Assembly (NCBI RefSeq): GCF_053078305.1
Contig: NZ_CP166879.1
Direction: 5' to 3' (one strand)
Length of the DNA: 64,000 nucleotides
Part shown: positions 9,958-10,045 of the stretch, piece after piece
How positions within the stretch are numbered: position 1 is the first letter of the stretch
How the letters are laid out: each line of letters opens with the position of its first letter
Made by a program: the position numbers and the translations under genes
Notes under the pieces: generated by a model
Told to the model about the DNA's origin: nothing
Databases searched by the model: none
Seen by the model: the letters and a program-made list of their open reading frames with translations, nothing else

Positions 9958-10045
9958 GTGCCGGATGCGGCGTAAACGCCTTATCCGGCCTACAAATGCG
10001 CTCCCCGTAGGTCGAATAAGACGCGTCAGCGTCGCATCCGACACC
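9958..10045. repeat. REP element pair inside the phn operon (phnK-phnL spacer)
   Basis: gccggatgcggcgtaaacgccttatccggcctaca / gtaggtcgaataagacgcgtcagcgtcgcatccgac. Confidence 0.75.

Follow-up and report, generated by a model that had tools for sequence, protein, structure and literature searches.

A common BIME in the phnK-phnL spacer of the Escherichia coli C-P lyase operon, at a gene boundary repeatedly colonised by palindromic repeats

In the phn operon of Escherichia coli, the genes from phnG to phnP follow one another with almost no intervening DNA, except between phnK and phnL. The questions raised by this locus are what occupies that spacer, why it is found at this junction, and whether it changes the fate of the mRNA that runs through it. 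REPs, the most common small palindromic repeats of E. coli, are selfish or domesticated elements, the spread of which is thought to be due to the TnpA-REP (RAYT) transposase, and their occurrence as pairs within operons has been recognised since the 1980s. The window analysed here, a stretch of 64,000 nucleotides, contains the phn operon of E. coli, encoded on the + strand. Its yjdM-phnP region is 94-99.7% identical to that of K-12 (94-97.5% for the phn genes alone), and the phnK-phnL region is 99.8% identical to that of E. coli strain Res13-Sevr-PER07-33. The gene phnK (9195-9953, + strand), coding for an ABC ATPase subunit of C-P lyase, was recognised from the list of open reading frames, from 95.7% identity to K-12 phnK over 759 nt, and from the phnK annotation in the closest genome. 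It ends with a TGA stop codon at 9951-9953, and the downstream gene phnL (10064-10744, + strand) begins with an ATG at 10064, leaving a spacer of 110 nt (9954-10063, + strand). The corresponding spacer of K-12 MG1655 (4317896-4318005) is also 110 nt long and differs at two positions, 9956 (T in the window, C in K-12) and 10015 (A in the window, G in K-12).

Within phnG-P, the junctions G/H, H/I, I/J, J/K, L/M, M/N, and N/O are overlaps of 1-14 nt, phnF and phnG abut, and phnO and phnP are separated by 1 nt. The sequence-only reading of this DNA had taken K/L to be the only other non-overlapping junction in phnG-P; it is indeed the only substantial spacer, although the 1-nt gap between phnO and phnP does not overlap either.

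A REP consists of GTAG and an imperfect palindrome with an AA/GC bulge, 35 nt long in the y type and 37 nt in the z2 type, and two REPs in inverse orientation joined by a linker form a BIME (PMC8266576). From the phnK stop codon onwards, the spacer reads GCTGGT, REP-a (GCCGGATGCGGCGTAAACGCCTTATCCGGCCTAC), a linker (AAATGCGCTCCCC), REP-b (GTAGGTCGAATAAGACGCGTCAGCGTCGCATCCGAC), and then ACCCGAACCAC-GAGG-CGAAAA, followed by the ATG of phnL. REP-a (9960-9993) is a y-type REP on the minus strand (GTAGGCCGGATAAGGCGTTTACGCCGCATCCGGC), that is, an 'iREP' on the mRNA strand, and has no mismatch to the y consensus. REP-b (10007-10042, + strand) is z2-like, has one mismatch to the Z pattern, and lies in the orientation opposite to REP-a. 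The GTAG of REP-b (10007-10010) is on the mRNA strand, while the CTAC of REP-a (9990-9993) is GTAG on the minus strand, and the linker of 13 nt (9994-10006, + strand) lies between these two ends. The AA/GC bulge is found in both copies, as GCCGGAT-AA-GGCG...CGCC-GC-ATCCGGC in REP-a (minus strand) and as GTCGAAT-AA-GACGC...GCGTC-GC-ATCCGAC in REP-b, and the internal loops are visible in the folds. With 34 nt for the y-type copy and 36 nt for the copy of z2 length, both are stem-loop palindromes in the 20-50 nt range of REPs, and the inverse pair with its short linker has the build of a BIME.

In the window, the y-type consensus is matched 12 times, against 0.00 matches expected from 100 shuffles, and the Z-type pattern twice, again against 0.00 expected. 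With a query containing the pair, megablast finds a median of 25-27 places in an E. coli genome, and the pair itself extends into neither phnK nor phnL. The GTAG, bulge, sizes, inverse pairing, short linker, extragenic place, and occurrence of the family in hundreds of copies per genome are all shared with the E. coli REP and BIME classes of Gilson, Bachellier, and Hofnung, and nothing essential is different in the phnK-phnL pair. The outer-stem arms of REP-b are GTCGGAT/ATCCGAC, as against GCCTGAT/ATCAGGC in the z2 copies of neighbouring arrays. Thus there can be hardly any doubt that the element is an ordinary E. coli BIME made of one y-type and one z2-like REP. A REP pair had already been proposed for this spacer at 9958-10045, and the consensus matches bear it out; that interval encloses both REPs and almost coincides with an extended inverted repeat (9957-9979 / 10023-10045).

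The module is also found elsewhere. An 85-bp copy of the whole module, 95% identical and with nearly the same linker, is found between hypF and norW, which are convergent genes (E. coli VE-V11-M, locus 1501-1584), and the y-linker-z unit therefore appears to have been duplicated as a whole. The REP pair between phnD and phnE (4635-4721) is a different BIME arrangement, since its GTAG/CTAC ends point outward, whereas those of the phnK-phnL pair face inward to the linker. The phnE1 start given for K-12 in RefSeq falls inside this other pair, at position 4686 of the window, while the PGAP start of phnE in the closest genome maps downstream of it, at 4737; the K-12 phnE1 start looks too far upstream. 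The K-12 phnE pseudogene (839 nt) aligns end to end with 831 nt of the window (4686-5516). The defect of K-12 phnE is presumably an 8-bp insertion. The phnE of the window may be intact, 831 versus 839 nt being consistent with the absence of those 8 bp.

Several other element types were considered for the spacer. The hairpin is not an intrinsic terminator, since no U-tract follows it (the next sequence is ACCCGAACCACGAGG); the + strand at 9950-10070 has no terminator-like site, and a scan of 9000-11000 gave no promoter-like site. The sole terminator-like match nearby lies within REP-b on the minus strand and is no better than expected by chance. The IHF consensus WATCARNNNNTTR is absent from either strand of the spacer and the linker is just 13 nt long; therefore, an IHF-binding BIME-1 (RIP/RIB) was rejected. 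An Rfam scan returned nothing at the REP pair at the gathering threshold, and a permissive scan returned only naRNA4 (RF02564) below threshold. This assignment was also rejected, since the full pair scores 30.3 bits against a gathering threshold of 59.5, a level that 12 further sites in the window do attain; one half of the model matches REP-a perfectly, with 41.1 bits. The REP325 BIME-2 unit behind naRNA4 is likewise composed of y and z2 REPs, but its GTAG ends point outward and it occurs in arrays, whereas the phnK-phnL element is a single unit with its ends inward.

Such arrays are present in the same window. At 1675-2161 (yjdM/yjdN) there is a BIME-2 array of five units with a period of ~100 nt and five naRNA4 matches of 86-111 bits. 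A larger REP array on the minus strand (33645-34360), repeating every ~113 nt, has six naRNA4 matches of 65-81 bits and a terminal REP besides, and includes y-type copies with GTCGGAT arms. The Rfam scan also identified SECIS_2 at 31125-31179 (87 bits, + strand), presumably in fdhF, and the Hfq-binding sRNA sraL at 52128-52268 (153 bits).

The REP pair is separated by 6 nt from the phnK stop on one side and by about 10 nt, on the other, from the Shine-Dalgarno sequence of phnL. The latter, GAGG at 10054-10057, forms with the ATG at 10064-10066 an (A/C)GAGGC..ATG block (10054-10066, + strand) that is conserved in most aligned enterobacterial sequences and that the centroid fold leaves unpaired. 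A conserved GAGG 6 nt before the ATG thus speaks for 10064 as the start of phnL. The same region contains an open reading frame of 432 aa (9446-10744, + strand), the last 226 residues of which are PhnL. It is the phnL frame left open upstream through the spacer and through an alternative frame of phnK, the first in-frame stop ending at 9388. As a real gene it was rejected, since apart from the 226 C-terminal residues of PhnL it consists of out-of-frame phnK and REP sequence. The REP pair had been said to create this spurious frame; the frame exists and is spurious, but the REPs contribute only in that they contain no stop in that frame. For annotation, the BIME accounts for the 110-nt gap and the misleading 432-aa frame, and the phnL start at 10064 is confirmed.

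In the K-12 RefSeq copy (NC_000913.3), no feature is listed in the spacer, nor at ~5565-5669; this copy seems to carry no REP features, so that their absence is uninformative. We take the GenBank record of K-12 to carry an annotation, REP1, at about 5565-5669. No paper linking a REP to phnK/phnL was found in the literature searched, and the supplementary text of the RepRanger paper has no phn entries. Overall, the REP pair at phnK-phnL is a known kind of element in a known place, and is also present in K-12. By itself it carries little biological weight, since REPs within operons have long been known and K-12 has a copy.

Both REPs are predicted to fold stably. The REP-a hairpin has a free energy of -22.3 kcal/mol (z = -4.7) and the REP-b hairpin -14.4 kcal/mol (z = -3.3), versus -21.3 kcal/mol for REP-b in K-12. 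The A at 10015 of the window, a G in K-12 and in most E. coli, breaks a G-C pair in the stem, and REP-b is therefore weaker by about 7 kcal/mol. Alternatively, REP-a can pair with REP-b in one long hairpin (9957-10045, + strand), which is the MFE fold (-51.3 kcal/mol, z = -7.35) and was equalled in stability by 0 of 200 shuffles. The folds are stable overall, with z = -4.5 to -7.4. The spacer allele of the window is rare, with about 18 records at at least 99% identity, and a rare substitution that weakens the stem fits a hairpin without strong constraint.

The variation at this site was followed in 5426 complete E. coli genomes, 5387 of which contain the phnK-phnL junction. The REP-pair form was found in 4839 of the 5426 (89%), with no length variation among the sampled rows. 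In 546 (10%), an unrelated palindromic element of 176 nt occupies the same insertion point, for example in E. coli ACN001 (locus 555-730). The two forms add up to 5385 of the 5387 junctions, so that essentially no genome is left with an empty site, and an E. coli genome with an empty K/L site apparently does not occur in this sample. The minority element consists of two G/C-run palindromes, CCCTCTCCCGGAGGGAGAGGG and CCCCTCGCCCCTTCGGGGAGAGGGTTAGGGTGAGGGG, and belongs to a family which we take to be the 'boxC' G/C-run palindromic repeats of E. coli. Both alleles begin directly after the stop codon and share an identical right flank, GAACCACGAGGCGAAAA-ATG. The boxC-like element is dispersed, and one of its copies lies next to a BIME of three REPs in the ytfQ-ytfR junction. 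It therefore has the insertion point, palindromy, and dispersal in common with the REP pair, but differs in its unrelated sequence (CCCTCTCCC..GGGAGAGGGTTAGGGTGAGGGG), lack of GTAG, low megablast copy number, and length (176 versus 110 nt). A recent import of this allele from Pseudocitrobacter was considered and rejected, since its flanks are 96-97% identical to the window and 91-94% identical to Pseudocitrobacter.

Across species, the same junction is the one least often overlapping. A PhnL scan of species-representative genomes gave 80 loci, in 78 of which K/L could be measured; 73 have a spacer there and 5 do not, with a median of 25.5 nt. Among the 80 loci, overlaps prevail at I/J, L/M, and M/N, and 37 of 77 J/K junctions overlap or abut. 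All loci from Enterobacteriaceae have overlaps at I/J, J/K, and L/M, and most have one at M/N, while at K/L every one of them has a gap, of 7-298 nt. The minimal junction, stop-GAGGCGAAC-ATG with 7-9 nt, is seen in Leclercia, Citrobacter sp. FP75, and an Enterobacter MAG. Other species show a range of insertions: one REP (RIT691, Enterobacter cloacae), one REP-like hairpin without GTAG (Kluyvera), one REP with part of a second (Cedecea), a REP pair of the E. coli architecture (Pluralibacter and Citrobacter werkmanii), and three REPs (Enterobacter asburiae). Since the junction works with zero, one, two, or three REPs or with another element, the REP pair seems to be tolerated rather than required.

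In Pseudocitrobacter faecalis DSM 27453, K/L is 298 nt long and holds four boxC-like modules. The phn DNA of this strain (a 5.7-kb locus) is 93-94% identical to the window, seemingly above what is expected between genera, which suggests that the Pseudocitrobacter phn operon was acquired by horizontal transfer. Farther away, two Pseudomonas species have GTAG-type REP pairs at K/L that belong to two different sequence families, and three Devosiaceae have an element of the form CCCCTCCCC/GGGGAGGGG-TTAGGGG, the design of which mirrors the E. coli minority allele. The Devosiaceae elements (Pelagibacterium and Devosia; loci 2291-2500, 2248-2500, and 2304-2500) read CCCC(A/T)CCCC..loop..GGGGAGGGG, together with a mirrored copy that ends in TTAGGGGTGGGGG. 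Between the Devosiaceae and E. coli groups, PhnL shares only about 64% identity; therefore, their likeness is not due to recent transfer.

Folding was compared between junctions for all spacers of at least 40 nt, with z below -3 counted as strongly folding. Ten of 23 such spacers fold strongly at K/L, compared with 0 of 20 at J/K, 0 of 6 at I/J, 0 of 1 at L/M, and 0 of 5 at M/N. The contrast between K/L and the other four junctions together (0 of 32) gives p = 3.9e-5 by Fisher's exact test, and about 0.012 after a rough collapse of lineages, although the cases are non-independent and the taxa with an open J/K are partly REP-poor. Within Pseudomonas alone, the contrast is non-significant (~2 of 17 species at K/L versus 0 of 17 at J/K). 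Since unrelated palindrome families occur at K/L and equally open J/K, I/J, and M/N spacers in the same genome set hold none, the phnK/phnL boundary of C-P lyase operons might attract stable RNA hairpins, either as a preferred place or through convergent selection. This reading is quite unlikely.

The effect of the pair on the transcript may be considered in the light of what is known of the operon and of REPs. In phosphate-starved K-12, RNA-seq gave a single phnC-phnP unit with coverage falling along the operon, while in low-expression samples phnGHIJK and phnLMNOP were assembled as separate units with a break at or near K/L; phnGHIJKLM, including phnL and phnM, is essential for cleavage of the C-P bond (PMC3734233). 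Reads from REPs probably map to multiple places, and we therefore infer that the breaks at K/L are weak evidence for a split and that coverage dips at REPs in short-read RNA-seq are probably in part mapping artefacts. This calls for care in method: coverage alone is an insufficient check of a split, and 3'-end mapping is needed. The PhnGHIJ core carries PhnK and PhnL as a double ABC dimer (PMC9947105). With such a double dimer, there is no evident stoichiometric need for unequal expression across K/L. A REP less than 16 nt from a stop codon causes ribosome stalling and a lower output of the upstream gene, according to the account of Liang et al. 2015 in PMC12306157.

The location of the pair is primarily explained by K/L being the only permissive site in phnG-P. 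For its behaviour, the following scheme is proposed. The REP pair would be transcribed inside the PhoB-dependent phnC-P mRNA and would fold as one or two very stable hairpins, through which RNA polymerase is expected to read without terminating transcription. In the mRNA, the hairpin would impede 3'-to-5' exonucleases, so that decay intermediates ending after phnK may outlive the phnL-P part. It would also separate initiation at phnL, which has its own GAGG, from termination at phnK, and, 6 nt past the phnK stop, it may hinder terminating ribosomes and slightly lower the output of PhnK. Stabilisation of mRNA by REPs is said to have been described by Higgins in 1988, and attenuation of transcription by BIMEs by Espeli and colleagues in 2001. 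The classic mRNA-stabilising REPs, reportedly those of Newbury and Higgins from 1987-88, are the intra-operon REPs of malE-malG and hisJ-hisQ. They are said likewise to be REP pairs after a stop codon, with the next gene having its own Shine-Dalgarno sequence, and a protection of the upstream mRNA would be expected here as well. However, the upstream gene in those operons reportedly codes for a highly expressed binding protein, which resembles the phnD-phnE pair and not K/L; the genes flanking the phnK-phnL pair encode two ATPases of a 2:2 double dimer. Taken together, it is rather probable that this is an ordinary BIME at the sole roomy junction, acting as a partial exonuclease barrier and uncoupling translation without terminating transcription, all effects on the RNA being ones that we infer. 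What the sequences show directly is the identity, build, and fold stability of the pair, its frequency in E. coli, and the turnover at this site between species. The chances of a measurable effect on mRNA 3' ends or stability are about even, and it is unlikely that the pair is maintained by selection for such an effect.

Other accounts of the pair differ in how much they ask of the hairpin. The least demanding holds that the pair is a pure passenger without measurable effect on phn, present because K/L alone tolerates insertion while every other phnG-P junction overlaps, abuts, or leaves a single nucleotide. The free variation from zero to three REPs among related species, the boxC-like alternative within E. 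coli, the toleration of the stem-weakening A10015, and the production of a full-length transcript all agree with it. Nevertheless, a hairpin of -51 kcal/mol placed 6 nt past a stop codon is unlikely to be fully silent given the published effects of REPs. An empty site is apparently found in none of the about 5387 E. coli genomes, and the open J/K, I/J, and M/N spacers of other taxa are uncolonised (10/23 at K/L versus 0/32). Complete silence is thus possible but doubtful. At the other extreme, the hairpin could act as an internal terminator or attenuator, intrinsic or Rho-dependent, that stops many RNA polymerases and leaves phnC-K high and phnL-P low. Attenuation by BIMEs, as reported, would accord with this, and so would the falling coverage and the separate phnGHIJK and phnLMNOP units of low-expression samples. 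However, the hairpin has no U-tract, the + strand has no terminator-like site, phosphate-starved samples give one phnC-phnP unit, and the coverage breaks at REPs may stem from multi-mapping reads. Furthermore, Metcalf and Wanner are said to have found in 1993 that the operon's only promoter lies upstream of phnC, while phnL and phnM, downstream of the hairpin, are essential for C-P cleavage. Attenuation on this scale is therefore very unlikely. The suggestion of the sequence-only reading that the pair splits the operon into segments is accordingly plausible in a weak form and unsupported in a strong one.

Between these two, the hairpin may serve as a translational brake that stalls ribosomes at the phnK UGA, leads to tmRNA tagging, and keeps PhnK below PhnG-J. 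The distance of 6 nt is within the reported limit of 16 nt, as are the distances of 4-12 nt in eight related species (counted on the spacer sequences), and one preparation of the purified core complex, 'Phn(GHIJ)2K', had just one PhnK for each (GHIJ)2 (PMC9947105). Yet the ancestral spacer is 7-9 nt, so that any insertion necessarily comes to lie near the stop, and the proximity carries no independent information; a brake of this kind is unlikely. A role of the DNA itself or of the nucleoid has also been considered, with the pair serving as a site for IHF or DNA gyrase or giving rise to a nucleoid-associated naRNA. Both gyrase and IHF can bind to BIMEs, and the pair weakly matches the Rfam naRNA4 model (REP325), but the IHF consensus is absent from both strands, the 30.3 bits are far under 59.5, the internal arrangement is opposite to that of REP325 units, and a single two-REP unit does not form an array. 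Such a role is extremely unlikely. Overall, the partial exonuclease barrier that uncouples translation and does not terminate transcription is the reading preferred here.

The REP pair of the phnK-phnL spacer is therefore of modest interest as such, and the points worth noting are solely the allele polymorphism within E. coli and the recolonisation of K/L, which has been colonised repeatedly across Proteobacteria. The polymorphism of the REP pair and the boxC-like element provides a ready allele comparison for testing whether repeats tune the expression of the C-P lyase operon. If the boundary were indeed a preferred site for a stable hairpin, the hairpin would set the expression ratio of PhnGHIJK to phnL-P, and the two E. 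coli alleles would be a natural experiment on that ratio.
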